The translations under genes and the position numbers were made by a program. This document shows, one piece after another, positions 7,935 to 27,761 of a stretch of DNA of 39,173 bases. The notes beneath the pieces were generated by a model. That model did no database searches, was not told the DNA's origin, and saw only the letters and a list, made by a program, of their open reading frames with translations. The stretch lies in the IMG/VR virus record IMGVR_UViG_2563366802_000014; one strand, 5' to 3'. Source of the DNA: a virus (lineage: Duplodnaviria > Heunggongvirae > Uroviricota > Caudoviricetes). Numbering within the stretch: position 1 is the stretch's first letter; every line of letters starts with the position of its first letter.

Positions 7935-7935
7935 T

Positions 7936-7947
7936 GTGACATGTCAC
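7936..7947. repeat. 12-bp perfect palindrome GTGACATGTCAC (copy 1 of 3)
   Basis: Overlaps the TGA stop codon of the 98-aa membrane protein gene and abuts the terminator. Confidence 0.8.
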
Positions 7948-8240
7948 GTTCCTTTTCTGAATGATAGCCATTCGAAAAATGATGACATTCCACCGCAGAC
8001 AATAGCAAAGATGATCCCACCAAAGAAGAGAAGGCCAGCCTGCCACCACTCCCACCGCCATACATCCACAGCGCCAACCATACCAACAATCGCTCCAACA
8101 AATGGAATATAGCTCACGATGAAAGCAATGGGGGCTGCAATTATCCAGTGCAATCCCCACCATGATTCAAGCCCAGCCATAATTGCTGCCAACTGAAAAA
8201 GACCAACGACGATATAAACAATGAATCCTATAGCTTGCAT
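7944..8240 (-). CDS. Small integral membrane protein (98 aa)
   Basis: ORF from track; 3-4 hydrophobic helices rich in G/A/I/W; RBS AGGTGA upstream; follows the internal virion protein genes. Confidence 0.6.
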   Translation of the reverse strand: MQAIGFIVYIVVGLFQLAAIMAGLESWWGLHWIIAAPIAFIVSYIPFVGAIVGMVGAVDVWRWEWWQAGLLFFGGIIFAIVCGGMSSFFEWLSFRKGT

Positions 8241-8252
8241 GTAGTCACCTAT

Positions 8253-8426
8253 TTACCCAGTAAAAATCAGAGGCCTCCCCTCAATAAGGCTTGCAACAAG
8301 AACTACTCCCTGCACAACAAAGATGAACCAGCAAATAGCTTGAGTCTGAGGGTTAAGAAAATATTTGTAGCGGTCAATAAATAACAGCCCACCAGAAATT
8401 ATCACACTCAAAATAATTAAAAACAC
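8253..8426 (-). CDS. Very small hydrophobic protein (57 aa, GTG start), tentative
   Basis: Hand-translated minus-strand ORF below the 60-aa track cutoff; RBS AAGGAAG 4 nt upstream of GTG; stop 12 nt before the next start. Confidence 0.35.
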   Translation of the reverse strand: MFLIILSVIISGGLLFIDRYKYFLNPQTQAICWFIFVVQGVVLVASLIEGRPLIFTG

Positions 8427-8435
8427 AACACTTCC

Positions 8436-10910
8436 TTATTGCGGAGTGACATCCTGAGGTCGCCACCAGTATGTCTGGTTAAACTCTTTCTTCGAACGTT
8501 GCTCCATTTTACGCAAATAGCCTGGTGAAAAATACTCCTGCATCTGGTTAAAGATCATGTGATCAAGAGCTGCCTTCAAGTACCAGAGATTCGCACCTGG
8601 CATCAGCCCTTTCCCAAGTTTCACCAGATCACCACCAGTCTGCTCGTTCTTCCCTTCCACAGCATTTAATGGTATGCCCTGAGCTATCTTCACTACGTCA
8701 TCAATCAGGCCAGCTACCGGGCCAAGCATCGACGCCAGCGCGCCGCTTCCGTACCTAGTGTGATCTGACAATAAAAAGTCACCGTAAAGGCCAAGACCAC
8801 CACCTTTCAGTAGAGCACCAAGCCAAAATTTAGCAGCATCTTCTCCTGTCATCTCGCGAGGATTACGACCAGACGCAAGGTCGTTAAGTTGCTGCGACAA
8901 AGCGCCAAGAATGGTCGTACTGGCAATAAACGTCGCAATATATGCCGCACGCCCACCAGCAGACGGCATACCCATAGCGCGTGACCAGTGACGCATAACC
9001 ACCGAGATAGGGAACGATTTAAACAGGAAAACACTTCTCGTTAATTCACCTTTCCATGTTCCACGCTGAATACCAGAACCGGTTATCAGTTGCTCACGTG
9101 CTCCCGGTGTAATAACAGCCATATCAACTTCTTCAGTTACGGCACCGAGCAGTTTACGCATTGCCTCAAATTTCACGCGTTCAGGCTCACCAAGATGTTT
9201 AACTGCTGAATCAGGGATACGCATAATGCTTTCCGGTGTCAGCATCGTATTATTACCGTTCCCCCAGTCCTCCTGTTGCGCCAGCTTCCATACGCTCCAG
9301 TCTGTGTCAGTAATCCCTTTGCTTTTCAGGATACGAAAATCAGAGTCATCGAGGCTACGAAGGTCTGGTGTCCGTGACACTACTTCTCCCAGGCTTCCCA
9401 TCATGGTTACGCCATAGGCGCGCTTGTGCGCATCTGACCATGCTGTAAGCCCACTGGCACGCATTACCGCCGTTGCTGCCCAACGAGACACTGACGGCCC
9501 CATATTATCCATCGCCCAGCGGTTAACGCTGCCAAGTAGAGATTCCATTGCCAGACCAGCGCGGCGCGCCCGCGCAAGTTCTGTACGGTTCGTTGGGTCC
9601 ATAGCTTCAAGCTGGTTGCGGAATAACTGGTTCATTGGAAGGTTGGTCACCTTCGCAGACAGATACATGGTTCCAAGATCAGAGAACGATGATAGCAACG
9701 CGGATCCGAGTCTGCTGGCAACCAGCCAGTTGCGGATATTGTCAGACCATCGCGCGATGTGCGGATTCGCTACAGGCTGTGTCTTTCCGGAAATAAAGTT
9801 GTACAGATTCTCTGTGTTGTTCGCCAGCCGCTCGACTTTACCGGTTTTACTCGGGTTAGCTGTTGCCGTTTCTGCCTTAACCTGATCAAGAAGGGAGCGG
9901 AAAACATGATCGGGGTTTGGACCATATGTTTCCACCAGAGCAATATCTTTACTGATACCTTCCAGGTGACCGACCATGATTTCCCATAGAGAGCGATCGC
10001 CATAAAGTTGTTGATATTGGAGATAGGAATCAGCATCTTTGAAATGTATCTGTCGTGATGCATTACCACGGTTAGCACGTGCGCCGGAAATTCGCATTCC
10101 GGTATCAGTAAGCTTATTCAGCCCACCAGTAGCGATCGTGTTATAAGCCTCTCCAAGAAATGCAGACAACTCGGCACCGTTCATCAGTTGTCCATCGGCT
10201 CGGGTATAATATTTGCGATCCAGCTTACCTATAACATCGTTAACCCACTTATCCTTTGATACCGCCCCAACCTTTTCCATAGAATGATGTTGAGGGATCC
10301 CCCAGTTTTCGAGATAGCCAATGTCCCCACCAGCATCATTAAACCGGCGGCGCAGCAGCTCTGTAACTTCTCTCCACGCCTTAGCACCTTTTCTTGCTTT
10401 AGCATTGCCAGTATTTTGCCCCCGCATTTCATATACCAGGTCACGTACGCCCGCTTCATCTTCAAACAGACCAAAAAAGCGAGGATCAACTGCTTCGAAT
10501 GCCTCCTGCAATTGACTCAATGCATAATCACGGGTGGCTTTTGTTCTGGATTCAACAGAGAGGAAATTAGATTTACCGTCTGCATTAAAAGCTATAGTAC
10601 GGTTAAGAGCGCCAAGTTTCCCATCAGCCCCTTGATAGCTATTGATAAATTTATCCAATCTCTGACGCGCGGCTATAGTGAGAGCCACACGACGTTTCTT
10701 TAATGCCGCTTCTCGCTGTAATTCTTCAGATGCCAATTGTGCTGCTCGATATAGCCGCTCTGATTCGGAAAGTTGTCGCCACGACATCGGGTCATCACGA
10801 GCAATGGAGCGCATATTTCGATAAATGCGGTCTTCAATGTTCTGTATTTCTCGCGCCGTTAACATGCGCTGCGCCGCCTGCTGAACCGCCTGTATACATT
10901 CCTGTCTCAT
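8436..10910 (-). CDS. Large internal virion / ejection protein (824 aa)
   Basis: Large ORF in the run of virion genes between the tail-tube-like genes and the tailspike; role inferred from size and position only. Confidence 0.55.
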   Translation of the reverse strand: MRQECIQAVQQAAQRMLTAREIQNIEDRIYRNMRSIARDDPMSWRQLSESERLYRAAQLASEELQREAALKKRRVALTIAARQRLDKFINSYQGADGKLGALNRTIAFNADGKSNFLSVESRTKATRDYALSQLQEAFEAVDPRFFGLFEDEAGVRDLVYEMRGQNTGNAKARKGAKAWREVTELLRRRFNDAGGDIGYLENWGIPQHHSMEKVGAVSKDKWVNDVIGKLDRKYYTRADGQLMNGAELSAFLGEAYNTIATGGLNKLTDTGMRISGARANRGNASRQIHFKDADSYLQYQQLYGDRSLWEIMVGHLEGISKDIALVETYGPNPDHVFRSLLDQVKAETATANPSKTGKVERLANNTENLYNFISGKTQPVANPHIARWSDNIRNWLVASRLGSALLSSFSDLGTMYLSAKVTNLPMNQLFRNQLEAMDPTNRTELARARRAGLAMESLLGSVNRWAMDNMGPSVSRWAATAVMRASGLTAWSDAHKRAYGVTMMGSLGEVVSRTPDLRSLDDSDFRILKSKGITDTDWSVWKLAQQEDWGNGNNTMLTPESIMRIPDSAVKHLGEPERVKFEAMRKLLGAVTEEVDMAVITPGAREQLITGSGIQRGTWKGELTRSVFLFKSFPISVVMRHWSRAMGMPSAGGRAAYIATFIASTTILGALSQQLNDLASGRNPREMTGEDAAKFWLGALLKGGGLGLYGDFLLSDHTRYGSGALASMLGPVAGLIDDVVKIAQGIPLNAVEGKNEQTGGDLVKLGKGLMPGANLWYLKAALDHMIFNQMQEYFSPGYLRKMEQRSKKEFNQTYWWRPQDVTPQ

Positions 10911-10915
10911 TTAAT

Positions 10916-12718
10916 TTAACCTCTCAAGAAACACGCCACAGCGACATCAAACAGGCTGGAATCCTGTATTGCCTGCTCACTTTCCCTGTTCGCTTCATCC
11001 AGTACTTCACGCGCACTGCGCGATTGTGGATTACCATCATCATCCAGCACGGTGATTATCATGTCAGGTGATTCAAGCAGCGAGTCTTCAGCTATACGCA
11101 GATCAATATCTCCTGCCGGATCTGCCATCATTTTTTGTTCTGTCTGTTGCAATATCTTACCGGGCTCAAAAGGAGCTACTTCGTCTGGCGTCCTGACCTC
11201 TGCTGTTTTATAGAATGAAACAGCCTGAGCATTAAGTTCACTTTCTGCCTGCTGTCGTCGTGCCAGTTCTGCTCGAGCTTCAAAAAACTGACCGCCAGGC
11301 TCATGCGGTGCCAACGCGTTACGGGAAAATTCCAGGCGCTCTTGTGCCTGCCGGATTCGTTGGTCAATATCGCGAAGTCTGACCTGTTTATCTGATCGAG
11401 CACGAGACAAAGCTTTACCGCTACCGGTTGGCTCTTCTGCAAGAATTTGTGCGCGCTGTTCAGTGAGATTTTCAATAATTCGTTGGCTATTAGCGATTTC
11501 AGACTGGTAAACCTGTCTATCGCCACGCGGCAAAAGCTGCGCGGCCTGTTCTTCAAGCAACCGATTTTCTATAGCGCGCGCCGTTACTCCATCATCTACA
11601 GATGACAGAGCCTCATTAACTGCCTGAGACAGCAGACTCTTGCGCCCAGGAATTTCACTGAAAGATGCAGACTCAACAATGCTGGCAACGTCTACAGGTC
11701 TCCCCTGGCTAACATCAGACATAGCTTTTCGCAGAGCCTGAATGTGAGAATTGCGCGAAAGCACGTTGATCGGCACGCCGGGCGCAATATCAATTTCAGC
11801 ATGATGAGCGGCATTCGCCGCCAGTGCAGCATCAACATCAACTGGTGAAAAATTTGGTGCGCTTGTAGACTCGCCGCGAGAGTTCATAAATCTGCCGACA
11901 CCACCAAACGCCACCCCAAGAACAGCATCAATAGCAATTGCCTGTCGATCCAACACATCATACTGGTTAGCCATTTCGCTATAGCCACCATCACGAAGCG
12001 TTTTTGCAGTAAGCCCACGCTGTGCCATACCGAACGCAATATTTGTACCTGCGGCATAGGCAATATCTGGCGTTGCACGCACTGCTGTTGCTGCGGCGCG
12101 TCGCACTGAACTTTCACCCGTCCGCGCAAGCTGGGCCGCCACACCTTCCGCCAGCGCACCACCAGCACGTAACCCGAGGCTCATAGGGATCAGTGTTCCG
12201 GCACCAGCAGTAATACCCTGCACTAATCCCGCTTCCTGCGCCGTCCTGAAATCAACACCCTGTGCTGTCAGCCGTTCAAACTCAGAAAAACCCTGTAGAG
12301 AAGTTACCGCCGCAGCACCTCCGACCGGACCACCGAGCGTTGTACCGACAACAGCCTGCCCTCCCATATCGAACAACCCATAAAGGACCTGCCCGGCGGT
12401 TCCGGTTGTCGCGGCATCAGGCGTCAGCCGCTTAACCTGCTGCTCTGCTAGTTTTCTCTGCTCAGCAATGTATGAAACTGAAGTGTCATTAAGCGAGGTG
12501 TTTTCGTTAACAAACTGAGCAATCGGGGATACGATTTTATCCATCCCTGCCCATAGCAACTGATCTGGCTTTGCCACCAGCCCGGAGTACAAACCAGACA
12601 ATGCCGCTCCTACAGCATTGTCGAAAAAACCAACATTGCTGTTAAAGCCAGCTGGATTTGATGCTGCTTCGTCAAGCTGCTGATTCTGGCTTACTGGATT
12701 AAGGCCAAAGTAACTCAT
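10916..12718 (-). CDS. Internal virion / ejection protein (600 aa)
   Basis: Gly/Ala-rich large ORF translationally coupled to its neighbours; role inferred from position. Confidence 0.5.
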   Translation of the reverse strand: MSYFGLNPVSQNQQLDEAASNPAGFNSNVGFFDNAVGAALSGLYSGLVAKPDQLLWAGMDKIVSPIAQFVNENTSLNDTSVSYIAEQRKLAEQQVKRLTPDAATTGTAGQVLYGLFDMGGQAVVGTTLGGPVGGAAAVTSLQGFSEFERLTAQGVDFRTAQEAGLVQGITAGAGTLIPMSLGLRAGGALAEGVAAQLARTGESSVRRAAATAVRATPDIAYAAGTNIAFGMAQRGLTAKTLRDGGYSEMANQYDVLDRQAIAIDAVLGVAFGGVGRFMNSRGESTSAPNFSPVDVDAALAANAAHHAEIDIAPGVPINVLSRNSHIQALRKAMSDVSQGRPVDVASIVESASFSEIPGRKSLLSQAVNEALSSVDDGVTARAIENRLLEEQAAQLLPRGDRQVYQSEIANSQRIIENLTEQRAQILAEEPTGSGKALSRARSDKQVRLRDIDQRIRQAQERLEFSRNALAPHEPGGQFFEARAELARRQQAESELNAQAVSFYKTAEVRTPDEVAPFEPGKILQQTEQKMMADPAGDIDLRIAEDSLLESPDMIITVLDDDGNPQSRSAREVLDEANRESEQAIQDSSLFDVAVACFLRG

Positions 12719-15228
12719 TGCGGAATATCTCCGGAGAATCTCTGACGTTTCTGTGTCAGATTAAGAACAACGGGAGAACCATCATCTTTCAGCAGATAAC
12801 CAGTACCAAGTTTCACCAGGTACTGACTATCGCCGTAACTTTGCAAACCATACTGACCAGGCGGTGTTTTTATCCCGGAGCCGACAACTTGTTCATTCCA
12901 AGCCTGATTAACCTGCTTATCGAATTGCTCTGCAGACATTCCCCACGGCAAAAGGACATTCCCCATTCCGTTATAGTCATGCACGCCACCTGTAGCTACG
13001 TTAACAGCCTGTTTCCAGACATCATTGTCAATTTCGCCTGATACCACGCCTTTTTTCGCCATCACACCAGCGTAATAGTCCTTTGCGATCTCGTATGCCA
13101 TTGATGCCCCCTGAGCATCACCAGCAAATGCATCCTTCACCATGTCAGAAAACTCAAGGCGAAGATCAGCATCTTTAGGCATCGGAATACCTTTCGCATC
13201 ATCAGTACCTTTACGAGCCGCCGCGCCAGCAAGAATTGTCTGCGCAGCGGTTTCAGGAGACACGGAAACATCCGGATTAAACCAGTTTTTTTCTGCCAAA
13301 ATACCACCAGGCTTGTCCATCAGTATCCCGGCAACGGCAGCAGATGGAGCGTTGGCACTGATCTGCTGTAGTGCTGACATATACACCTGCCCACCACCAG
13401 TGCTCTGCCTGATGGTATCGAGATATGCTGCCTGTTGGGAAACTGGAGCATCACGAAAGAAAACACCGATCTGATTGGCCTCGTCTTTGGAAAAGAACGT
13501 CAGTGGAGTGCCATATGACTTAGCAAGGTCACTGACCTGAGCAGCACGCAAGGCAACGCTCTGTCCAAAGTTATCCTTATTGCTCATGTCGATAGGCTTT
13601 GCCTGTCCGGCGGCAAGAGAGAACTGTACAGGATCAGCCTGTCTCTGCTTTATCACCTGACTTGCAGCCGACACAACGTTGTCATAAAGAGCGGCTCGTG
13701 CCGCATAACCCTCCCCTGTCTCACCAGTATCCGGGCGTAATTGCTCAACATATGCTGTAATGCTGCTTGTCGGCATGTTGCGGAAAGAGCCTATATACTG
13801 TCCGGCGATTTGCGTATTTCTGAACTCGGTATATCGCAGGTTTCCTTCTCTGACTCCATAAGCTGCAATAAAATCAGCCTCACCAGGTGGGTTAGGAAAT
13901 TCAACGCCACGCATATACGCAGCTGTCGCATCGCGAACTTGGCTGTCAATCATCGTTTTATATTCAGCCTGCTGCTGCCGACGCAGTTGATCCGCCTGTC
14001 GCATAAAACTTGCCTGCGCCTCAGGAGATGCCGCATCGAATGCTGCATTACCGGTATAGCGTTTGGTGTTGGTTGGAATTGTTGATAAACCAAGTGCTGC
14101 ACTGACACCAGCAGTTAACTGCTGATCACTGTATGGCTGGCTACCGTTCTCATGATGGATAATGGCTGCACAAAGCGCCTTCAGGGTATCAGGATTAGAT
14201 GCATCGAGAGGCTCATCAGCAGAAACGCCAAGTTGTTCGCACACTGCTTTGATATACGACATAGTGTCATTTTTATCAGTAGGCGGTGCCCAGCGATTAA
14301 TTATCTCGCTGACGGTATCAATACCCTGTCTCTGATACGACATCAGGTTCCGCCCTAATGCACGAATCCCGTGTTCAGGTGTTTCGAATTTAGCAAATCG
14401 ACCATCATCACCGGTCTGGCCTACCCACGGATTGGTTTTGCTGTATTCGAGATTTCCTGGGTTATTGTTGCGTATGCCACGGGCACGCTCGGAAGAATCA
14501 CTATCTGCTACAGCACGGCGAGCTCCAGCAGCAGTATCACTTAACTCGCCATTACTTTGGATGAATGCGGTCGCATTGTTTGCCGACCACTGGGACAATG
14601 CTGCATCAGCAACCTTCTCTTTAAACTCGATTTTCTTGGCCTGGATTTGCTCGTCGCTCCAGCCATGCGCAATGCCGTAATCCTCAATTTGCTGGAAAGT
14701 TTGCTTATTAGCCAATACGTATGCGGCGTTGTCGCCATACAATGCTGCGGCATTTTTACCATTGTTCAGCAGCGTAGCCTGAAACTGGCCTTCTTCGTAG
14801 GCATTTATTTGCCCTATCTCGTGCCGCCCGGCCTGCGTAGTGAACTGAATGCGCTGCTGCTGCGCCTGCTGCATGAAAGCATTACGAGCCTGTTCATCCG
14901 GCAGCGACATAGCCAGTTGCTCGACCTTGGCATCAAACTGCTGCGTATACTCCTGACCTTTTCCAATAGCATTTTTCCCTTTCAGGTTAAGCAAACCTGT
15001 TTCAGGGTTATTCAGCAGATCGCTGCTTATCTGGCTTAAGCTAAGAGAAGCATCCTGAGCCATAGCAACATTCGCACGCTGTTTTGCCTGCGCAATAATA
15101 CCTGCATATTGCTCTGCAACATCGCCAAGTACATCACCGACATTTGGTGTCTGAAACGATGAGAATCCCTGCGTCGAAATCCCTCTGCTCTGAACCTGAC
15201 GGCCCGATGTTGTTGGTACAACTGGCAT
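12715..15228 (-). CDS. Large internal virion / ejection protein (837 aa)
   Basis: Large ORF in the virion gene run; contains the segment GIRNNNPGNLEYSKTNPWVGQ of unknown significance. Confidence 0.5.
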   Translation of the reverse strand: MPVVPTTSGRQVQSRGISTQGFSSFQTPNVGDVLGDVAEQYAGIIAQAKQRANVAMAQDASLSLSQISSDLLNNPETGLLNLKGKNAIGKGQEYTQQFDAKVEQLAMSLPDEQARNAFMQQAQQQRIQFTTQAGRHEIGQINAYEEGQFQATLLNNGKNAAALYGDNAAYVLANKQTFQQIEDYGIAHGWSDEQIQAKKIEFKEKVADAALSQWSANNATAFIQSNGELSDTAAGARRAVADSDSSERARGIRNNNPGNLEYSKTNPWVGQTGDDGRFAKFETPEHGIRALGRNLMSYQRQGIDTVSEIINRWAPPTDKNDTMSYIKAVCEQLGVSADEPLDASNPDTLKALCAAIIHHENGSQPYSDQQLTAGVSAALGLSTIPTNTKRYTGNAAFDAASPEAQASFMRQADQLRRQQQAEYKTMIDSQVRDATAAYMRGVEFPNPPGEADFIAAYGVREGNLRYTEFRNTQIAGQYIGSFRNMPTSSITAYVEQLRPDTGETGEGYAARAALYDNVVSAASQVIKQRQADPVQFSLAAGQAKPIDMSNKDNFGQSVALRAAQVSDLAKSYGTPLTFFSKDEANQIGVFFRDAPVSQQAAYLDTIRQSTGGGQVYMSALQQISANAPSAAVAGILMDKPGGILAEKNWFNPDVSVSPETAAQTILAGAAARKGTDDAKGIPMPKDADLRLEFSDMVKDAFAGDAQGASMAYEIAKDYYAGVMAKKGVVSGEIDNDVWKQAVNVATGGVHDYNGMGNVLLPWGMSAEQFDKQVNQAWNEQVVGSGIKTPPGQYGLQSYGDSQYLVKLGTGYLLKDDGSPVVLNLTQKRQRFSGDIPQ

Positions 15229-15240
15229 CTTATTATCCCC

Positions 15241-19643: not shown

Positions 19644-19693
19644 ATACACTCCTGCAATAAAGGGGCCGAAGCCCCTTGTCTGATCCGCGAGGC

Positions 19694-20038: not shown

Positions 20039-20039
20039 C

Positions 20040-20477: not shown

Positions 20478-20528
20478 CTTCTTTCTCCATTAGTGGGTCT
20501 GTTACGACCCACAGGTTAATAACAGGCG

Positions 20529-21521
20529 TTACACCACGCGGGCTTCTGTTTCCAGAAGCGCATCAGTTTCACGGATTGGTACACCACGGAATGAAGTCCA
20601 CCACTCGCCTTCTGTCTCTTTTACGCTGATCGCCAGAGATGTTTTCTCCAGAGATTGCAGATCAAGAGCCTGGCCTACAGTGCGGTTCATGTAGAACACC
20701 GGGCGACCCATGCCACGATTTGGAATGCGATGCAGTGCTTTAACCATCAACTTCGCAATATTTGCGGCAGAGGAAGGTTCTGAAAGATTGCTGACATCGA
20801 TGTTTGCAATGCGAACAACATAACGCCAGTCACGCAGAGCAAGTCCGTTGTCCCATTTGTAATGGGTACGGTAGCCTTCGTACTTGCCGCCATTCGCATC
20901 TTCCAGTGTCACCTGGCCTTTATCTTCCATCTGGATGCCAGCCTTCTGCCCTTTCGGGAAGATGCCATGCACGGTGTTTTCGCCCCACACCACTAACCAG
21001 ATTGAGGTGTTATCTGTACCCGTGCCACCAGCATCAATGATGTTCTGAGCATTACCCGCAGACAGGCTGGAATAGCGGGAGGACAGTCCCATAAACTGCT
21101 GAGGGTTAACGCTGGAATCACCATAAAACAGTGTCTGCGCCATCTGCTGATTCATCGCTTCAATAAATGCGCGGTCTTCAGACAGGCGGAATTCGGCGGT
21201 ATTACCGTTCAGATCAGCCAGTGACTTATCGACTTCAGCATAGGTTTCCAGCATGCCAACGGAATCGGTTACCTGCACTGTGGTTGATTTGCTTGGCTGT
21301 ACGCCATAGTTCAGCAAACGCCAGGTAGCTGAAGGTAAACCAGAACGAATGGTGGTTCGGTGTCCGGTAGGAAGGTTCCCTTCGACAAAAGGCATATCCT
21401 GAAGGATCGGGTTAGTTTGACCGAGAAGCTCGATAATCTTATCGACTTTCCCGTTTGGATCGACGCGCTTACCCCAGTCAGCCAGCGTTAGCGCAGTTAA
21501 GCCTTTAACAGCCATTGTCAT
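20529..21521 (-). CDS. Major capsid protein
   Basis: 330-aa ORF directly downstream of the scaffold gene in portal-scaffold-capsid order; followed by a stem-loop at 20493-20512. Confidence 0.7.
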   Translation of the reverse strand: MTMAVKGLTALTLADWGKRVDPNGKVDKIIELLGQTNPILQDMPFVEGNLPTGHRTTIRSGLPSATWRLLNYGVQPSKSTTVQVTDSVGMLETYAEVDKSLADLNGNTAEFRLSEDRAFIEAMNQQMAQTLFYGDSSVNPQQFMGLSSRYSSLSAGNAQNIIDAGGTGTDNTSIWLVVWGENTVHGIFPKGQKAGIQMEDKGQVTLEDANGGKYEGYRTHYKWDNGLALRDWRYVVRIANIDVSNLSEPSSAANIAKLMVKALHRIPNRGMGRPVFYMNRTVGQALDLQSLEKTSLAISVKETEGEWWTSFRGVPIRETDALLETEARVV

Positions 21522-21529
21522 TTCCTCTC

Positions 21530-22225
21530 TTATTTGCCATAGAGCACTTCGGCCGCACTACGCTGGCCTTCATTACCACCGGTGACCATGCCATCTTCAG
21601 ACATCGCCTTTCCGATTTTCACGAACGTTTTGACCAGATCAGGGTGATTACCCAGCCCGGTGGTGTTCAGATATTCTTTGAGTTCAGGTGTCCCGAACTG
21701 GTCAAGCGCACGCTGTGCGGCGCTAAGGTTAGAAATCAACTTGTCGCCACCGATTTCTTTGTCAGCTTTTACATCCGCAGCCCACTGCTCGGTTGTTTTC
21801 TGCCAGGCTTCTGCCTGGCGCTGCTGAACACCTGCCAGAATCTTCGGATAAGCATCAACCAGCTTTTGCGCTTGCTCGTTGGTCAGGTTAAGTTCTCGCG
21901 CCACCGGCTCGAATTCCTTCAACGCTTCTGTATCCAGTTCTACGCCTTCGGCAGCCTGAAACTCGTACTTCTCAGGCGCACCCTCTGGTTTATCGCCGTC
22001 CTTTTTTTCATCCTGCTTATCGTTTTCAGGCTTTTTGTCATCAGCAGGTTTATCGCCATCAGCAACAGGTTGTGGCTTATCACCTTCCTGTTGTGATGGA
22101 TCACCAACTGGAGCAGGGTTATCACCTGCAGGCGCTGACGGTTCTGACGCAGCCGGAGCTGCTCCACCATCGACTGGTTGCTCATTGCAAAGACGGCGAT
22201 ACAGCAAACGCTCAAATAAACTCAT
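21530..22225 (-). CDS. Scaffolding protein
   Basis: Acidic, Pro/Asp/Lys-rich low-complexity N-terminus with helical C-terminus, lying between portal and capsid genes; start set at ATG 22225 with RBS AGGAG. Confidence 0.65.
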   Translation of the reverse strand: MSLFERLLYRRLCNEQPVDGGAAPAASEPSAPAGDNPAPVGDPSQQEGDKPQPVADGDKPADDKKPENDKQDEKKDGDKPEGAPEKYEFQAAEGVELDTEALKEFEPVARELNLTNEQAQKLVDAYPKILAGVQQRQAEAWQKTTEQWAADVKADKEIGGDKLISNLSAAQRALDQFGTPELKEYLNTTGLGNHPDLVKTFVKIGKAMSEDGMVTGGNEGQRSAAEVLYGK

Positions 22226-22227
22226 GA

Positions 22228-22524
22228 TCACTCCTGTTCACTGGCCTCTTTGGCCATCTTCAAATACTGTTCAGGGCAATGCGCCATAACGCGCTGAAAC
22301 AGTTCCAGCGCCAGATTGCGTTGCCCCTCATTAAATGCCATTGCCATAGCGTCCATCGGTGAGATAGCGGAAAACACACGGCCTTTCTCCAGCACCGACC
22401 AGACAACGCGACGCCCCTGTTCGCTGCTCATGACAAAGCGAATGTCATCAATTTCACGCTGCGCCATGTCACGTTGCTTACGGGCGTTTTCTTCTTTCAG
22501 TTGATCGTCTTCGTAATCTGTCAT
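22228..22524 (-). CDS. Hypothetical head-module protein (98 aa)
   Basis: ORF from track between portal and scaffold genes, translationally coupled. Confidence 0.5.
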   Translation of the reverse strand: MTDYEDDQLKEENARKQRDMAQREIDDIRFVMSSEQGRRVVWSVLEKGRVFSAISPMDAMAMAFNEGQRNLALELFQRVMAHCPEQYLKMAKEASEQE

Positions 22525-24200
22525 TGTGATTGCCCACCCTGACCACTAACTGCATTCGCCATAGCTGACAAAACACTCGGATCCGAAGTTTTAGCTTCGC
22601 TTAGCGTCTTGGCACCCTGTGCCGCCGCCATCCCCATCGCCATCATTTGTTGCTGCTGTTGCTGCTGTGCCCGTTGCTGGCGAGCATGCTCAACCTGTTC
22701 CTGCGGAACAATGACGGTTGGAGACACTCCGGACATATCAGCGAATGCATCGATCGCCTGATCAACGTTGAGTTTGTCGAGAGCTTCTGGTTTCGCTTGC
22801 GCAAGTTGACCAATGAAGTTAACCGTGGACGCCAGACTGGACAGGCCGATAGACTTCTGCGCCTGAGCCATGACGGAAATGTATTCGACCTTCAGGGGCA
22901 TGCCTTCCATCGCGTCAGGCGGTGGCGGCAGCATGTTTTTACGCACCATCATAGAGAAAGCGCGGTCAATGAGAGGATTAAGACATTCGTCGTTCAGACG
23001 CTCCAGAACCGGCCCCAACATCAGAAGTTTTTCTTCTTTCATTTCGATCACCGCTTCAACAGGCATCGAGCGGGTATTGATGTTCTGCAACATCATGAAC
23101 AGATCGACAAAGTAGGCGCTGTTAATGATTTGGCGAGTGTCCTGAATGTCTGCCACCAGATCTGCTGTACTGGGGTTAACCAGATAAGCAGGCCTGAAAC
23201 CATCCTGACCAGTAATCTGATCGATATACGTGATGTCGCCAGGAAGAAGGGAGGCGCGCTGATTCTTGAGGGAAGTCGGAGCAACCATCGGCGGATTGGT
23301 GGCTTTATCAATCAACTGCGACTTGCGCTTCTGGAGAAGCTGCAATGCCTTAACAGGTCCAAGCGCCAGCATACCCGGGCATGATGATCCATAAACATCT
23401 TCGCCGTTAACTTCCCAGCGCGGAGCCATAATTGGAAACTCATCGAATCCGGACTCACGCAACAACTTGTCGTTATCGCCGCCAACCTCGTAATAAACCG
23501 ATTTGAATGGCTTGTTCTTGCTATCCAGCTTCGATGTATCGCGGTCAATGTTCGGGTAAACCGAATGCATCACTTCGATCCACTTCTCGTAGGTGCCGCT
23601 TTCCCACATGCTTTTTACGGATTCGCTGACGTTATTTAGCCCGAACTCCTGAACAAGCTGACGAACAGTCATAGAGAACTTGCGAAAACAGGTGTCAACA
23701 CTGCCACGAGGTGAGTTAGCCAGGTAGTAACTGCCTATCGGGAATGGCATTGTGCGAATGATGTCCTCGTCATCCTCCAGCACTGCCATTGCACCAGTGC
23801 TGTATGTGCCGAGGCTTCCGTATAACTGCGGAAGAGACTGGTAGAGATTCGACTTATTGAACATATCGTTCATGCGGTTCTGCACCGCCTCAAGCCACAA
23901 CTTAACAGGGCCATAATCCATCATTTCAGGATCTGGCGTAGCCAGGCGAAACCACGGACGCGCGGGGCTTGTGATGCCTGACATCATGCCGCTGGCGAGA
24001 GTGCGCGCCGCCATAGTCCCGGTCGAATCAATAATGCGTGTATTGCGTCGATCGTTACGGTTGACCTCTGAAGTCAGAAAGCGGGAACCACGCGGGTTGA
24101 TGTAATCACTCAACTCGCGCCAGTGCGGCTCGAACGACTGACGCTCGCTTTCAAGTTGTGCGAACTGTTTGTTCAATCGCTCTTTAGTTGTTTCCGCCAT
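22521..24200 (-). CDS. Portal protein
   Basis: 559-aa ORF downstream of the terminase genes; Gln-rich C-terminal tail; function by position and size. Confidence 0.7.
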   Translation of the reverse strand: MAETTKERLNKQFAQLESERQSFEPHWRELSDYINPRGSRFLTSEVNRNDRRNTRIIDSTGTMAARTLASGMMSGITSPARPWFRLATPDPEMMDYGPVKLWLEAVQNRMNDMFNKSNLYQSLPQLYGSLGTYSTGAMAVLEDDEDIIRTMPFPIGSYYLANSPRGSVDTCFRKFSMTVRQLVQEFGLNNVSESVKSMWESGTYEKWIEVMHSVYPNIDRDTSKLDSKNKPFKSVYYEVGGDNDKLLRESGFDEFPIMAPRWEVNGEDVYGSSCPGMLALGPVKALQLLQKRKSQLIDKATNPPMVAPTSLKNQRASLLPGDITYIDQITGQDGFRPAYLVNPSTADLVADIQDTRQIINSAYFVDLFMMLQNINTRSMPVEAVIEMKEEKLLMLGPVLERLNDECLNPLIDRAFSMMVRKNMLPPPPDAMEGMPLKVEYISVMAQAQKSIGLSSLASTVNFIGQLAQAKPEALDKLNVDQAIDAFADMSGVSPTVIVPQEQVEHARQQRAQQQQQQQMMAMGMAAAQGAKTLSEAKTSDPSVLSAMANAVSGQGGQSQ

Positions 24201-24214
24201 TTCAATGACTCCGG

Positions 24215-24421
24215 TTACTGACCAAGCAGCGTTTTACCGCTGGTATTAGCGGTTGATGTGTCGCCCTGAGAACCAGTAAGCAGCGTAGAACTACGACCAG
24301 CAGCAGCGCGACGGCGACGTGTTTCTTCGTCGCGGGCATCAACAACGGCGGCATCCTGCTCCTGTGGTGCTGCCTGAACTTCTGGTGTTGCAGGCACTGA
24401 TGGTGAGCTACCCATGCACAT
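24215..24421 (-). CDS. Small hypothetical protein (68 aa)
   Basis: Ala/Arg/Glu-rich ORF with RBS GGAG 8 nt upstream, ending 15 nt before the portal start. Confidence 0.35.
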   Translation of the reverse strand: MCMGSSPSVPATPEVQAAPQEQDAAVVDARDEETRRRRAAAGRSSTLLTGSQGDTSTANTSGKTLLGQ

Positions 24422-24511
24422 ATCAATGACTCCGTACGCAATTAAATTATTACCAATTTAACCACATATGATTTATTTATCGTAGGTAGTTGACATTTAA
24501 CGCACGAATTA

Positions 24512-24526
24512 TTACCTTTAAGGTAA
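24512..24526. promoter_or_regulatory. Operator-like palindrome TTACCtttaaGGTAA next to a TTGACA -35-like hexamer
   Basis: Perfect copy; TTGACA at 24490-24495 on the plus strand. Confidence 0.55.
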
Positions 24527-24848
24527 CCAAAGAGCTCATTCCGGTTACTAACCTGACTGGCTTGTCGTTAAATTGAACAGGTGGAGTGAGCTTTTATTTT
24601 GAGCAGTACGGCGTATGGCACATGCGACGATAGCGGTCTGGATACGTTTAAGGGGCACCCTCCCTTGCTCGGGCAAACGAACCAGGTAGCCGGAATGTGC
24701 AAGTCGAGCGGTTTTATTCCGCGCACGGGGATACACCATCCCGGCGATTCGGTGTGACGCCTCGGAAGAGGCGAGGGTACAACGATGAGAGCATTTATGG
24801 AGCCGCGACAAAGTGTGGCGCCTTAACAGGCTAAGTGCTCTCAGCGTT

Positions 24849-24925
24849 GTGGCATTAGCTCAGTCGGACAGAGCAACCGCCTTCTAAGCGGTTGGTCGCA
24901 GGTTCGAATCCTGCATGCCACGCCA
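24849..24925 (+). tRNA. tRNA-Arg (anticodon UCU)
   Basis: Hand-folded cloverleaf: 7-bp acceptor stem GTGGCAT/ATGCCAC, D-arm GCTC..GAGC, anticodon stem ACCGC/GCGGT with loop CTTCTAA (anticodon TCT), T-arm GCAGG-TTCGAAT-CCTGC, discriminator G and encoded CCA. Confidence 0.85.
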
Positions 24926-24968
24926 GAATCACGCCTAAGGACCGTGATGCCAGAAGTTCCAGGTGCTT

Positions 24969-25010
24969 GGCGGTGATGGTTTCCCTTGAAGGACTATCAC
25001 CGCCCTTTTT
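24969..25010 (+). terminator. Rho-independent terminator downstream of the tRNA
   Basis: 9-bp stem GGCGGTGAT / ATCACCGCC followed by CTTTTT; the loop is long (18 nt). Confidence 0.5.
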
Positions 25011-25123
25011 ACAGCAGGACGCCATTGCGATGACTTCATGCTGTAAACCCGTACAGCCACGGAAGGCATAACTCATTGCTTCCAGTTCGCCCGGTTCGCC
25101 GGGCATTTTTTTAAGGTGAGATT

Positions 25124-25480
25124 ATGAACGACCAGCAAATCGAAAAAGAAATCGTTGAGAAAGGCAAAACCGCTCCGCGAGTTACGCCTCAATATATCGA
25201 AAGCATCATTCTTGAAGAGCATTTCTTTACTGCTTATGACGGCATTCGTGCTGCCAATATGGGCGTTGGCGATTCATGGACAGCGCATAAATCTACAGAC
25301 CTCCTGACTTTCTGCGTACTGGTGCTGAAGAATGGCTTCACCGTCACCGGAGAAAGCGCCTGTGCAAGCACGGAAAACTTTGATGCAGAAATTGGTCGGA
25401 AGATTGCCCGGCAGAATGCTGTAAACAAAATCTGGATGCTCGAAGGTTACTTGCTGAAGCAGAAGCTAAGCGAGCAATAA
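25124..25480 (+). CDS. Hypothetical phage protein (118 aa), oriented against the flanking packaging genes
   Basis: ORF from track with RBS AAGGTGAG; tentatively resembles a small phage protein family of the Gp49 type, from memory only. Confidence 0.55.
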   Translation: MNDQQIEKEIVEKGKTAPRVTPQYIESIILEEHFFTAYDGIRAANMGVGDSWTAHKSTDLLTFCVLVLKNGFTVTGESACASTENFDAEIGRKIARQNAVNKIWMLEGYLLKQKLSEQ

Positions 25481-25484
25481 CACC

Positions 25485-25496
25485 GTGACATGTCAC
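25485..25496. repeat. 12-bp perfect palindrome GTGACATGTCAC (copy 2 of 3)
   Basis: Begins 5 nt after the TAA stop of the 25124..25480 gene and 4 nt before the terminator. Confidence 0.8.
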
Positions 25497-25500
25497 AAAC

Positions 25501-25528
25501 AGCCAGCCTATGAGCTGGCTTTGTTTTA
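25501..25528 (+). terminator. Rho-independent terminator
   Basis: Stem AGCCAGC / GCTGGCT with 6-nt loop followed by TTGTTTTA. Confidence 0.7.
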
Positions 25529-25570
25529 TCCTCACCAGAGGATATCAACGACATTATCCCCACCAGCGGA

Positions 25571-27046
25571 TTAAGCATAAGGGTCATAATCCGTTATGGC
25601 CCTTCCCTGCTGGCTTTGCTGTCCTGGTATATTTATGCGTTTCGAGACCGGGAAAGCAAACGTCAGCAATAGCGCATCGCCTTTCCCCGGCGAACGCCCA
25701 AGTCGCTCCTTGATATCTTCCTTCGGTTCGATAACGATTTTACCGTCCACGCGAACTTTGTACTCTGCCGTCGACAGGTCGTCCGCTGTTTCCTGGTCAT
25801 CCAGCATGCCGCCGAGCCTCAGCCATGTCTTGCATGAGTTGAACATCTCCCCACGCTTGTTGAGCATCTGCGGGTCAGTAGACGCGCCACCGAACGGAAC
25901 AAGTTGCCATGTACGACCCCAGCCGTCACCGATTGACTTCAGACCAGTTCCGTAACCGAAGTCGATGAACACTGCGTCAGCCTGGTACTGGTCTTCAAAG
26001 TCAGCGATACGCTTCGCCATAATCAGATCGTCAGTGGTCTTGTTGCCGGTCCACAGCACCTTACTATGCAGCCCCTGCCGCAGGTATATCACAGCATCAT
26101 CAACACCGGAGTATGCCGGGTCAACGCCGATTATCACCGGAGCATGTGCCACCTGCGCAGCGGTTATCACCCGTTTCATTGCCTCGTCAGTAAGTCCGGT
26201 AGGGATAAACTGCAATTCAGATGCATCAGGGAATATGCCGCGCACACGGATTTTAACGAAGTCACTGTCTTCCCCGTAGTCATCAACCCATTTCTGCAAC
26301 TGCTGTTTGTTGGTGCCTTCCACCGTCCGGCTGTCAATCTGCGCAGTTTTCCAGCGGTGTTTATACTTGCGGAAACATTCACGGAATCGCCCGGTATTAC
26401 GCGTCGGGTTTCCGAACGCCACCCAAATAATCTCAGTGTCTTCGTCCGTAAGCGCACCCTCGGCAACTTCCCACACCAGATCCGCAATGTTCGACGCTTC
26501 ATCGAATACCACGATAATGCGTTTGCGCTCGTTGTGTAGTCCTGCGAATGCCTCAGTGTTGTGCTCAGACCAGGGGATTGCGTCAGCTCGCCACCGCTTG
26601 TCGTGTCCAGGATCATTGCTGTACATCGCGGTAGCGGTGCAGGTGAACCAGTCTTTCGTGATAGCAAGGTTCGACCACTTGATAATTTCAGGCCAGGTCT
26701 TCGTTCGTAGTTGGTTGTCGGTGTTGGCGGTCACCACGACCTTACAATCCTCGCAAGTGGACATGCCCCAGTTGATCAGCATTGAGATGAATGCGGATTT
26801 ACCAATACCGTGACCAGAAGCACGTGCCAGCATAAGCGGCTGATATCGCGTCTCTGGATTCTGCAGGTGATCACGTATCTCTCGGAACGCATCGGCCTGC
26901 CACTGACGTGGACCGGTGGCATGTGCCAGTTCAGTACCCTCTTCCCCCCACGGGAACGCATAGAGGGCATAGCCAAGCGGATCGTGAGTGAACCCTGCAA
27001 TATCCTCGATTAACTGCTCTTCAGGAGATAACGCTGTATCTGTCAC
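25571..27046 (-). CDS. Terminase large subunit
   Basis: 491 aa; N-terminal ATPase-like region with a candidate Walker A (GHGIGKS); overlaps the small subunit gene end; precedes portal. Confidence 0.85.
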   Translation of the reverse strand: MTDTALSPEEQLIEDIAGFTHDPLGYALYAFPWGEEGTELAHATGPRQWQADAFREIRDHLQNPETRYQPLMLARASGHGIGKSAFISMLINWGMSTCEDCKVVVTANTDNQLRTKTWPEIIKWSNLAITKDWFTCTATAMYSNDPGHDKRWRADAIPWSEHNTEAFAGLHNERKRIIVVFDEASNIADLVWEVAEGALTDEDTEIIWVAFGNPTRNTGRFRECFRKYKHRWKTAQIDSRTVEGTNKQQLQKWVDDYGEDSDFVKIRVRGIFPDASELQFIPTGLTDEAMKRVITAAQVAHAPVIIGVDPAYSGVDDAVIYLRQGLHSKVLWTGNKTTDDLIMAKRIADFEDQYQADAVFIDFGYGTGLKSIGDGWGRTWQLVPFGGASTDPQMLNKRGEMFNSCKTWLRLGGMLDDQETADDLSTAEYKVRVDGKIVIEPKEDIKERLGRSPGKGDALLLTFAFPVSKRINIPGQQSQQGRAITDYDPYA

Positions 27047-27639
27047 TGATTGCCATCCTGACGTTCTTTCAGTCTCTTCCTGGCTGCCGCTATGCGATCA
27101 GCAATTGTCACATTCACATTAACATCCAGGCGTTCTTTGAATGCGTTGACGTCGACGTGCTTACCAATCAGTTCGAGGTTCTTCACCTTGTCAGGCCATT
27201 TAATTTTTTTGAGGATTGTCTCTATCGAATCCTCGTTCATGTTCATGATGGTCGATGACAGATCAAAGCCGCTAAGCGTAGTGCGCCAGATTTTCGGCCA
27301 CTCTCGGATTGGCTTAAGGCTCCCATCGTCGTTGAGGATGTCGATCACGTCCATCTGGTCGATCTCCACCAGACGCATGAGAACGTAATCAGCACTGACG
27401 CGCATTCGTTTGTTGCGCTCCTCCATCAGCTCGGCAATCCGTTTTTGAATGCGTTCATCGCGCATCATGACACTGGCTTTAACTGCTGCTGTATTTGGGG
27501 AGAATCCTGCGTTAATCGCTGCCTGAGTCTGGTTTTCAGGCGTTTTGATGTATGACTGGCAATAAGCCTCCTGCATTGCTGTTAGTGGCTTAAATTGCGT
27601 TGATTTGCGTTTATAGGTTTTAGGTTCAGCAGGCATCAT
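27043..27639 (-). CDS. Terminase small subunit
   Basis: Resembles small terminase proteins and is translationally coupled to the large subunit; start reassigned to ATG 27639 (MMPAEPKTYKRK) rather than the track start 27717. Confidence 0.75.
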   Translation of the reverse strand: MMPAEPKTYKRKSTQFKPLTAMQEAYCQSYIKTPENQTQAAINAGFSPNTAAVKASVMMRDERIQKRIAELMEERNKRMRVSADYVLMRLVEIDQMDVIDILNDDGSLKPIREWPKIWRTTLSGFDLSSTIMNMNEDSIETILKKIKWPDKVKNLELIGKHVDVNAFKERLDVNVNVTIADRIAAARKRLKERQDGNQ

Positions 27640-27671
27640 AACCACCGTGGTAATAGTTACCGTTGTGGTAA
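27639..27671. promoter_or_regulatory. Two adjacent operator-like sites at the terminase small subunit start
   Basis: TaACCaccgtGGTAA (27639-27653, one mismatch) and perfect TTACCgttgtGGTAA (27657-27671), overlapping the start codon and 5' leader. Confidence 0.55.
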
Positions 27672-27681
27672 TAGTACCATG

Positions 27682-27708
27682 CAAAATAAAGCCGCCATAG
27701 TTGGCGGC
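27682..27708 (-). terminator. Rho-independent terminator between the 113-aa gene and the packaging genes
   Basis: Minus-strand hairpin GCCGCC-aactat-GGCGGC followed by TTTATTTTG. Confidence 0.65.
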
Positions 27709-27749
27709 AGTATTCAAAACACATCAAATTCATCATGCATAATCTACTC

Positions 27750-27761
27750 GTGACATGTCAC
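27750..27761. repeat. 12-bp perfect palindrome GTGACATGTCAC (copy 3 of 3)
   Basis: Overlaps the TGA stop codon of the 113-aa gene, about 40 nt upstream of the terminator. Confidence 0.8.

Follow-up and report, generated by a model that had tools for sequence, protein, structure and literature searches.

Described systems of similar design

Several described protein-site systems share features with the arrangement considered here. Small dimeric ribbon-helix-helix (RHH) proteins, such as P22 Arc, Mnt, CopG, ParG and the omega protein of pSM19035, pair with short symmetric operators near their own genes. A replicon carries several such sites, and omega recognises units of 7 bp. The stoperators of Cluster A mycobacteriophages are short, asymmetric sites for the immunity repressor that lie at gene boundaries and are thought to act on elongating polymerase. 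In the Q/qut system of lambda, the regulator gene is followed by a DNA site, a terminator and the late genes. LacI bound at O3, an operator at the end of its own coding sequence, is described as a transcriptional roadblock that regulates LacI synthesis (PMC3711431), and RNA polymerase halted ahead of a stop codon is reported to undergo transcript release, with trans-translation (PMC13584721). The dispersed matS sites of the RHH-containing protein MatP have, in E. coli, the 13-bp consensus GTGACATTGTCAC, as given in PMC8669397.

The DNA studied here (the window, 39,173 nt) is an epsilon15/phiV10-like prophage in which a 12-bp palindrome recurs. As in the RHH repressor-operator pairs, a short symmetric site lies near the gene of a small, presumably dimeric protein for which the RHH fold is predicted, and there are several sites per replicon; the centres of the palindrome half-sites are 7 bp apart. 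Unlike those pairs, the site is found at the gene's stop codon and not at its promoter, further copies lie at the 3' ends of operons, and the predicted protein is extended by a conserved basic helix at the N-terminus and by a Cys-rich Zn ribbon at the C-terminus. The palindrome is like the stoperators in that it would provide short protein-binding sites scattered at gene boundaries, but a stoperator role in the window fits the 14 repressor-type TTACC-N5-GGTAA sites and not the palindrome. The palindrome was also considered as an operator of the prophage repressor and rejected, since the operators annotated in epsilon15 and the 14 sites of the window have the consensus ATTACC-N5-GGTAAT.

The repeated palindrome and its context

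Exactly three copies of GTGACATGTCAC occur in the window, at 7936-7947, 25485-25496 and 27750-27761. The length-based expectation for a 12-mer is 39173/4^12 = 0.0023 copies, the 12-mer was absent from all 100 dinucleotide-preserving shuffles of the window, and the window has no further copy at one mismatch or less. A reading of the sequence alone (below, the sequence-only reading) had reported three perfect copies against about 0.002 expected, and the exact search and the shuffles agree with it. The features of the region are the following.

7918..7935, minus strand: terminator T3, intrinsic; ends the structural operon and touches copy 3
7936..7947, no strand: palindrome copy 3; overlaps the TGA stop of the 98-aa gene and abuts T3
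7944..8240, minus strand: gene for a 98-aa membrane protein (phrog_3075); final structural-operon gene, stop inside copy 3
25124..25480, plus strand: gene for a 118-aa Phage_gp49_66 protein (PF13876); opposite orientation, ends 4 nt before copy 2
25485..25496, no strand: palindrome copy 2; between the converging terL unit (minus) and 118-aa gp49_66-family gene (plus)
25501..25520, no strand: terminator T2, bidirectional; between terL and the 118-aa gene, 4 nt from copy 2
27639..27671, minus strand: two prophage-repressor operators (TTACC-N5-GGTAA type); overlap TTGCAT-17-GGTAAC, the putative, conserved terS promoter
27691..27708, minus strand: terminator T1, intrinsic; ends the early-right operon, 41 nt from copy 1
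27750..27761, no strand: palindrome copy 1; at the 3' end of the early-right operon, sharing bases with the TGA stop of the gp49-family gene
27758..28099, minus strand: gene for a predicted 112/113-aa RHH and Zn-ribbon protein (epsilon15 gp49, phiV10 p55, N15 gp46 family; phrog_536)

The 113-aa gene likely starts at the ATG at 28096, and the true start of terS is probably the ATG at 27636. The palindrome contains the stop codons of the 98-aa and 113-aa minus-strand ORFs, and the 118-aa plus-strand ORF ends 4 nt ahead of the copy at 25485; each copy is 0-5 nt from a stop codon and adjoins an intrinsic terminator. Each copy stands at the 3' end of one of three transcription units that run in the same direction (early-right, terS-terL and structural operon), and the sequences flanking the copies are unrelated to each other. 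The sequence-only reading had described the element as discrete and non-random, placed at the 3' ends of genes near terminators and possibly marking module junctions, and this description held, with the same junctions occupied in relatives.

Terminator-like hairpins with T-runs stand beside all three copies. The earlier claim of a terminator close to every copy is correct in each case, with distances that range from touching (T3) through 4 nt (T2) to 41 nt (T1). The hairpin, loop and U-tract of T1 are strongly conserved, and the U-tract overlaps the -35 element of the putative terS promoter. The T2 hairpin on the plus strand can also be read as a minus-strand terminator for terL. The palindrome itself does not have the form of an intrinsic terminator, as its stem is only 4-5 bp and it lacks a T-run; the terminators are distinct hairpins beside it.

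Conservation in related phages

The 12-mer is found at the same three positions in relatives from E. coli, Salmonella, Enterobacter and Klebsiella, in which the flanks and neighbouring genes differ; the sequenced relatives that keep all three positions number six and come from four host genera. Copy 1 is present in epsilon15, SPN1S, Tyrion, BUCT711 and phiv142-3, is present with one mismatch in phiV10, and occurs in 79 of 80 IMG/VR loci (75 exact, four with one mismatch). Copy 2 is exact at the homologous position in phiV10, epsilon15, SPN1S and Tyrion, and in phiv142-3 it reads GTGACACGTCAC, altered in the centre only. Copy 3 is kept in six relatives despite a differing last gene. The sequence-only reading had made its case depend on homologous positions in related phages, and the element was found there. 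The palindrome is most likely the target of some DNA-binding protein, a reading that had been offered before as one possibility.

The copy at 27750 had further been likened to a Q/qut-type layout, because it sits within a possible TTAATA-17-TAGATT promoter. It would then be a loading site from which a modified RNA polymerase passes the terminator into the packaging genes. The order regulator gene, site, short spacer, terminator, terS does resemble Q-PR'-tR', a -10-like CATGAT follows the proposed promoter, and the C-terminal Cys motif of the 113-aa protein aligns weakly with the RNA-polymerase-binding zinc fingers of TraR and YbiI (E = 0.07-0.14). The TTAATA-17-TAGATT sequence is present on the minus strand, but it occurs only in the window/phiV10 subtype and is missing in epsilon15, SPN1S, Tyrion and C. 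braakii, which retain the palindrome and the terminator. The upstream protein has a predicted RHH fold, with no Q-family domain found in Pfam or NCBIfam. Moreover, terS has a putative promoter of its own, a conserved sigma70-like TTGCRT-17-GGTAAY downstream of T1 and just ahead of terS that is overlapped by the repressor operators; the site homologous to these operators is annotated as repressor binding in epsilon15. Because this promoter-like element lies between the terminator and terS, expression of the packaging genes may be independent of read-through. At two of the three copies, which stand at operon ends, reading through would do harm, N15 carries the module together with a separate Q gene, and the site tracks the stop codon of its gene regardless of what lies downstream. 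The resemblance to lambda is one of gene order, and we regard late control of the Q/qut type as very unlikely.

The 113-aa protein family

The predicted model of the 113-aa Cys-rich protein has a beta-alpha-alpha arrangement, which is that of an RHH DNA-binding fold, followed by a Zn ribbon. None of the named RHH families matches this protein family at its curated threshold. A basic helix (RKxAQRxR) is conserved at the N-terminus, and the family Cys pattern is C79-x2-C82...C99, while the position of the fourth Cys varies. The DksA/TraR C4 zinc finger (CxxC-x17-CxxC) was considered for this region and rejected; the PDB profile matches are only marginal (YbiI, E = 0.07; TraR, E = 0.13). PF01258 was not among the 25 families listed of the 31 matched by 43 family members. 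Family members differ in their RHH beta-strand residues, but the DNA half-site is constant, so recognition may rest on the N-terminal basic helix. The sequence-only reading had called the two minus-strand genes that end in the palindrome unrelated; their stop-codon overlaps stand, but the 113-aa gene probably encodes the binding partner of the site.

The family members with a named host are all from Enterobacterales, Vibrionales or Alteromonadales, which are roughly the orders having MatP. This distribution is one argument for a host factor, chiefly MatP, as the protein that binds the sites, in which case the phage DNA would be handled like the Ter region, for example through MukBEF unloading or positioning. 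The other is the site itself, which has half-sites identical to those of matS (GTGAC/GTCAC) and equals GTGACATTGTCAC minus one central base, on the consensus given in PMC8669397. MatP-matS also shares with the phage system the dispersed sites and an RHH-containing protein with an extended helix. However, the spacer is 2 bp in all of more than 200 copies and never 3 bp, giving a 12-bp site rather than the 13-bp GTGAC-RNY-GTCAC; the motif follows the stop codons of a single family of phage genes, which would not be expected of a host-factor site; and both the gene and the motif are missing from lambda and P2. Xenorhabdus prophages retain GTGAC half-sites, whereas the matS of the related Photorhabdus thracensis is reported as GTTAC-N3-GTAAC (PMC8669397). 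The protein proposed here is the product of a phage gene and not of a host gene, it has no four-helix bundle, and homology between the 113-aa protein and MatP was not detected (hhalign probability 0.3%). Host MatP is a very improbable occupant of these sites.

Linkage of gene and site in divergent phages

The sequence GTGACATGTCAC belongs to a broader motif, GTGAC-NN-GTCAC, in which the two 5-bp half-sites are fixed and the 2-bp spacer between them is free. This motif accompanies homologues of the 113-aa protein with as little as about 30% identity, which occur in N15-like, P2-like, Mu-like and lambdoid phages. N15 gene 46 (34% identity) terminates in GTGACTGGTCAC; the number of copies in N15 is exactly three, one of them inside repA; the copy at the end of gene 46 directly precedes gene 47. 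The motif is at the gene end in 49 of 49 N15-like IMG/VR loci. In 75 loci from about 65 Enterobacterales species, 60 motifs were found in 456 kb against 0.44 expected, and 46 of these loci have the motif at the gene end. When seven other loci were added, 52 had a copy near the gene end, and in 47 of those the first base of the motif is at -4 to +4 nt relative to the in-frame stop. The same placement is seen in homologues of 27-35% identity from Vibrio and metagenomes, and the loci include P22-like, lambdoid and Mu-like types. Part of the stop-codon overlap could be passive, since the motif supplies a TGA in one frame per strand.

Additional copies in unrelated phages are also at gene 3' ends or convergent junctions, as in locus L239, where a motif pair follows a Bro-N gene. 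Terminator-like hairpins occur within 60 nt of 46% of 87 sites, compared with 13% of random positions. About 30% of family members have no motif within the 6-kb stretch analysed, and lambda and P2 lack both gene and motif.

The motif centres seen include AT, CT, AC, GT, AG, TG, CG and others, and the half-sites are invariant, as expected of a symmetric dimer on duplex DNA. The same observation bears on whether the palindrome acts once transcribed into RNA, as a small hairpin that affects 3'-end formation, processing, stability, or translation termination or coupling. A hairpin of 4-5 bp can fold next to each terminator, the element is always at gene 3' ends with the stop codon included, and in some phages the ribosome-binding site of the next gene directly follows it. 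Selection on a structural RNA would have the opposite result, though, from a stem that is invariant in all lineages, with no compensatory changes, and a "loop" that varies. The stem is also very weak, the non-palindromic centres in N15 are inconsistently oriented with respect to transcription, some copies lie inside ORFs, and no Rfam family matches. An RNA-level element is highly improbable.

Proposed function

From the gene-site linkage we infer that the palindrome is the operator of the 113-aa protein, which we consider probable. This pairing rests on co-occurrence, and three points count against it: the family members with no motif in the 6-kb stretch analysed, the variable RHH beta-strand residues beside a constant half-site, and the stop-codon overlap that may in part be passive. 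An elongation roadblock or boundary is the most likely action of the bound protein but, taken singly, is less likely than not; the explanation as a whole stands, in our judgement, at about even chances.

The 113-aa protein would be produced from the end of the early-right operon and, as a dimer or dimer pair, would occupy the three sites. Bound there, it would stop RNA polymerase at or just before the stop codon, and a block at this point would curb the output of the protein itself while sparing the upstream genes of the operon. The bound sites and the terminators together would seal the boundaries of transcription units, including two convergent junctions. LacI-O3 is a close parallel, with the operator placed where the coding sequence of its own regulator ends (as in 47 of the 52 loci) and gene-specific feedback by roadblock (described in PMC3711431; proposed here). 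It differs from the phage system in that the folds are unrelated, and in the phages a whole protein family keeps the arrangement, which also recurs at other gene ends. Against a roadblock, a tight block at the end of N15 gene 46 or at the repA copy would silence useful genes, the motif of copy 2 lies past the terminator in the late direction, and a block looks redundant with intrinsic terminators already at all three sites.

The same phage protein could instead bridge or loop DNA, or activate nearby promoters, without blocking elongation. Oligomers formed through the long helix and the Zn domain would tie the three dispersed sites together, much as has been proposed for MatP-matS bridging or as for omega- and ParG-type RHH proteins acting at several loci, and epsilon15-like and N15-like phages alike have exactly three dispersed sites per genome. 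For activation, a copy in N15 lies 24 nt upstream of a TTGACG-18-TAGAGT promoter, and a copy in BUCT711-type phages lies 6 nt upstream of a promoter with a LexA box. The distance from site to promoter varies, however: the site centre is at about -48 or about -66, or lies over 75 nt upstream beyond an intervening terminator. It is the stop codon, not a promoter, that is the constant feature. Bridging or activation appears unlikely.

Implications

The gene-plus-site pair is, judging from the sequences, common to many unrelated temperate phages. The 113-aa family and GTGAC-NN-GTCAC could constitute an undescribed shared phage module in which stop-codon operators would recruit the RHH and Zn-ribbon factor to act on polymerase during elongation and so serve as protein-programmed terminators or boundaries, a suggestion that we regard as possible but doubtful. 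At gene ends, such a module would give gene-specific feedback in polycistronic operons by way of stop-less transcripts, and it would extend through podo-, sipho-, myo- and Mu-like temperate phages of enteric, Vibrio and Alteromonas-type bacteria. As a further twist, the matS-like half-sites may reflect an interplay with host MatP/MukBEF, and their near-identity to matS raises the question of cross-talk with the organisation of the host chromosome.

The analysis provides a candidate partner and role for a family annotated only as "hypothetical" or "transcriptional regulator", which the model phages epsilon15 and N15 carry and which recurs, in prophages that number in the hundreds, in E. coli, Salmonella, Klebsiella, Yersinia, Xenorhabdus and Vibrio. 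If the proposal is correct, a stop-codon operator would allow compact control of a single gene within a long operon, and the copies at other operon ends would insulate neighbouring transcription units. This bears on how temperate phages separate early, late and antirepressor units, and on phage engineering; derivatives of phiV10 and SPN1S serve as reporter phages.

A palindrome at three gene ends

We found the 12-mer GTGACATGTCAC, one version of GTGAC-NN-GTCAC, at exactly three places in the window, and no further copies with one mismatch or fewer. It was absent from all 100 dinucleotide-preserving shuffles of the window. The copies and the hairpins beside them are as follows.

Palindromes and adjacent terminator-like hairpins
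27750-27761: copy 1, containing the TGA stop of the 113-aa ORF 27758..28099 (minus strand)
27708 to 27691, minus strand: terminator-like hairpin and T-run beside copy 1
25485-25496: copy 2, starting 4 nt past the end of ORF 25124..25480 (plus strand)
25501-25520, plus strand, usable on the minus strand too: terminator-like hairpin and T-run beside copy 2
7936-7947: copy 3, containing the TGA stop of the 98-aa ORF 7944..8240 (minus strand)
7935 to 7918, minus strand: terminator-like hairpin and T-run beside copy 3

The sequence-only reading had described three copies at gene ends beside terminators, and this account is accurate: the copies, stop codons and hairpins were all found again. The distance from copy to stop codon is 0-5 nt in all three cases. 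Searches of Rfam and PADLOC returned nothing at the three palindromes or for the neighbouring proteins.

Transcription units of the window phage

The window phage is an epsilon15/phiV10-like temperate podophage (Uetakevirus), with 94-98% identity to phiV10 and phiv142-3 across most of its length and with its late genes on the minus strand. The sequence TTACC-N5-GGTAA occurs 14 times, against 0.5 expected by chance, and these sites match those annotated as repressor-binding in the epsilon15 record. They lie ahead of terS (27639, 27657), the gp3/portal operon (24512) and the tailspike gene (5726), as well as in the immunity region and ahead of the antirepressor operon, and each late unit seems to be directly under prophage repressor control. 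We rejected the palindrome as an operator of the prophage repressor, because the operators of epsilon15 and the 14 window sites have the TTACC-N5-GGTAA sequence instead.

Other features of the window
5494, 5726, 6107, 7153, 24512, 27639, 27657, 30824, 30886, 32832, 33169, 33217, 33929, 33991: TTACC-N5-GGTAA sites
6158-6233, plus strand: isrK (Rfam, 77.9 bits)
6258-6343, plus strand: C4 antisense RNA (77.7 bits)
6391..7086: Bro-N antirepressor gene, with isrK and C4 just upstream
24849-24925, plus strand: tRNA-Arg(TCT), between terL and the portal operon
24855..25106: 83-aa ORF (phrog_4647) overlapping the tRNA on the opposite strand; one or other call may be spurious
1-1161: no homology to phiV10 or phiv142-3; two plus-strand genes; either host flank or prophage-end cargo
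1..516, plus strand: gene for a glycine-zipper/TraT-like protein, possibly cut by the window edge
532..1071, plus strand: gene for a DUF5384 protein
39173: end of the window, exactly at the integrase start

The region 6158-7086 is an RNA-controlled antirepressor operon of the P1 immI / N15 immA type, converging on copy 3.

In nine aligned phages and prophages we found a conserved promoter-like sequence, TTGCRT-17-GGTAAY, that overlaps the operator and lies directly after the copy 1 terminator, about 20 nt before the terS ATG at 27636. The mechanically called terS ORF (TTG 27717, minus strand) crosses that terminator and the operators; alignment with relatives indicates that the real start is ATG 27636 (minus strand). 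Conservation of the terminator hairpin is unusually high and extends to its loop, and the U-tract and the -35 element of the terS promoter overlap. The 113-aa gene and terS are in different frames, and a fusion of the two by read-through was therefore rejected. Because the conserved promoter and operators lie between the terminator and terS, the minus strand appears to be divided into separate repressor-controlled units, namely early-right (ending with the 113-aa gene), terS-terL, and gp3 to the 98-aa gene, and it is precisely these three that have the palindromes at their 3' ends. The sequence-only reading had placed copy 1 within a possible promoter ahead of the packaging genes and likened the arrangement to a Q/qut-type layout. 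That comparison fails: the proposed promoter is not conserved in relatives, the 113-aa protein is not Q-like, and terS has its own conserved promoter-like sequence.

Conservation among epsilon15-like relatives

Epsilon15, SPN1S, Tyrion (from Enterobacter) and phiV10 have the same 12-mer at all three homologous positions, apart from one mismatch in the phiV10 copy at the junction of the record. All three positions are kept in phiv142-3, with the middle copy altered in its centre alone (GTGACACGTCAC), and BUCT711 (from Klebsiella) keeps two positions and has an extra copy within a structural gene. Among IMG/VR contigs carrying the 113-aa gene, 79 of 80 have the motif at its stop codon (75 exact, four with one mismatch), and the remaining locus is the phiV10 record, cut within the motif. 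Absence from homologous positions in related phages had been named earlier as evidence against the element; the element is present there in six relatives and in these 79 loci.

The surroundings of the palindrome are far from constant. Its flanks diverge among relatives, and other genes take the place of its neighbours: the structural operon ends with a gene for 98, 64 or 46 aa depending on the phage, and the convergent gene after terL also differs. The homologous copies are 0-8 nt from a stop codon, with the one exception of the epsilon15 middle copy, which is 27 nt from each of the two flanking stops. The constant feature of the sites is thus the stop codon and not a promoter. A genome end or pac site was also rejected, as the phiV10 and Tyrion records begin or end within the motif simply through their authors' choice to cut them past the stop of the last gene, and N15, a cos phage, has copies far from cos.

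The Rz spanin gene of SPN1S (L006) has a one-mismatch copy, GTGACATGTCAT at 26722, overlapping its stop codon, where the lysis unit ends; this copy has no equivalent in the window. In several relatives (BUCT711, L008 in our set, about 380-431; L159, L165, L172-L174) a strong promoter that contains a perfect LexA box (CTGT-N8-ACAG) and probably serves an antirepressor comes after the gene homologous to the 113-aa gene. The palindrome is 6 nt upstream of the -35 element of this promoter in BUCT711 and L159.

The 113-aa protein

The 113-aa protein belongs to phrog_536, the family of epsilon15 gp49, phiV10 p55 and N15 gp46, and had no sequence match in Pfam, NCBIfam or the PDB. A search of 1.8 billion cluster representatives recovered 150 clusters at E ≤0.001, and in an alignment of 43 diverse members Arg 8, Arg 13, Cys 79, Cys 82 and Cys 99 are invariant. 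AlphaFold2 models the protein with confidence (pLDDT 90.9): residues 5-19 form a basic helix, which an extended stretch separates from helices 30-42 and 52-74, and a Cys-rich knuckle and a short C-terminal helix complete the structure. Matches to a TraR/DksA finger were marginal only, and this assignment was rejected. We found nothing in the literature on the function of epsilon15 gp49 or N15 gp46. A possible report of expression in a lysogen was discarded, as the "gp46" in the lysogen proteome of a Klebsiella telomere phage is a cB-like repressor by that paper's numbering (PMC12042878); the true homologue in that phage is at NAR688 40826-41149.

Gene and palindrome paired in distant phages

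N15 gene 46, whose product is 34% identical to the 113-aa protein, ends "...gcGTGACTGGTCAC". N15 (L090) has exactly three GTGAC-NN-GTCAC copies (28550, 33237, 39269): one at the gene 46 stop, one within repA about 620 nt from its start, and a third 24 nt upstream of a promoter-like TTGACG-18-TAGAGT that precedes the antirepressor locus. The motif is at the gene end in all 49 N15-like contigs; in 44 it recurs 4-7 kb upstream, in the place of the repA copy. Among members with 27-60% identity, the motif is at or overlaps the stop in P0121, P0203 (Vibrio), P0246 and P0210, follows it by a few nt in L151 and P0204, and lies 3 nt before the gene's own start codon in P0187. Both the gene and the motif are absent from lambda and P2.

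With a four-sequence alignment as query and one genome per species, a scan of the Enterobacterales gave 75 loci from about 65 species. These contain 60 motifs in 456 kb, compared with 0.44 expected, and 46 of the 75 have one at the gene end. When matches were extended to the in-frame stop in these loci and seven others (82 in total), 52 had a copy near the gene end; the motif lies within -4 to +4 nt of the stop in 47 of the 52, with the TGA inside it in 32 and its start 4 nt past the stop in 13 more. About 30% of family members lack the motif in the stretch fetched, and a de novo search revealed no recurring alternative palindrome beside them. In Pantoea/Erwinia-type prophages (L098 10357-10400; L176, L183, L188, L194, L195, L199, L205, L221, L223) a small conserved hairpin, CCTG(T/A)TGCAGC(A/G)GG, occurs about 10-14 nt past the palindrome, before a short gene that neighbours the integrase.

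Across the copies compared, the GTGAC and GTCAC half-sites are invariant and the central dinucleotide is free. A role at the RNA level would have to accommodate an invariant "stem" with a variable "loop", a weak fold, and no Rfam match at the sites, and we give it very little credence. The motif is best explained as the putative operator of the 113-aa protein, because a symmetric site with fixed half-sites and spacing is linked over long evolutionary distances to the gene for a dimeric DNA-binding fold.

Binding by host MatP is another protein-based reading. The motif equals the E. coli consensus matS, GTGACATTGTCAC (PMC8669397), less one central base, and the named hosts of the family are all Enterobacterales, Vibrionales or Alteromonadales. 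Against this, the spacer is 2 bp in every copy, the motif tracks the stop codon of a phage gene, and hhalign detected no homology between the 113-aa protein and MatP, so that we regard MatP binding as quite improbable. The GTGAC half-sites are kept in Xenorhabdus prophages; the scan recovered no Photorhabdus loci for comparison with host matS.

In other family members the motif is elsewhere in the phage: in a lambdoid phage two copies follow a Bro-N gene, a Mu-like prophage has copies too, and in a Yersinia P2-like prophage (L099) a Zn-ribbon gene is preceded by a pair 33 bp apart (14423 and 14456, one exact and one with a mismatch). A cos-like GC-rich sequence is about 170-200 bp away from the L099 pair, and a 284-aa gene whose product starts with CxxC lies about 70 nt downstream of the pair. 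It is possible that the 113-aa protein loops or bridges DNA, or activates promoters, from the palindromes, as suggested by its MatP-like architecture, by paired sites 23 and 33 bp apart, and by the sites that closely precede promoters in N15 and in phages of the BUCT711 type.

A possible roadblock at the stop codon

Ribbon-helix-helix regulators with short symmetric operators are already known. We did not find the 12-mer in the searchable literature, and we know of no described operator that lies within the stop codon of its own regulator, recurs at other operon ends and is common to many phage types.

The bound protein could act as a roadblock that the leading edge of RNA polymerase reaches before the active site has passed the stop codon. 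Lac repressor at O3 blocks transcription of lacI and thereby regulates itself (PMC3711431), and polymerase blocked ahead of a stop codon leads to transcript release and trans-translation (PMC13584721). Terminators are already present at all three window sites, one N15 copy is inside repA and another has gene 47 directly after it, and some family members lack the motif as noted; with these points against it we hold the roadblock only tentatively, as a mechanism that may well prove wrong. If it operates, it would provide feedback on the 113-aa gene alone, the last in a long early operon. Bound protein would also close off three units at their ends; two of these units face convergent transcription, from the 118-aa gene at copy 2 and from the antirepressor operon with its isrK and C4-like RNAs at copy 3.
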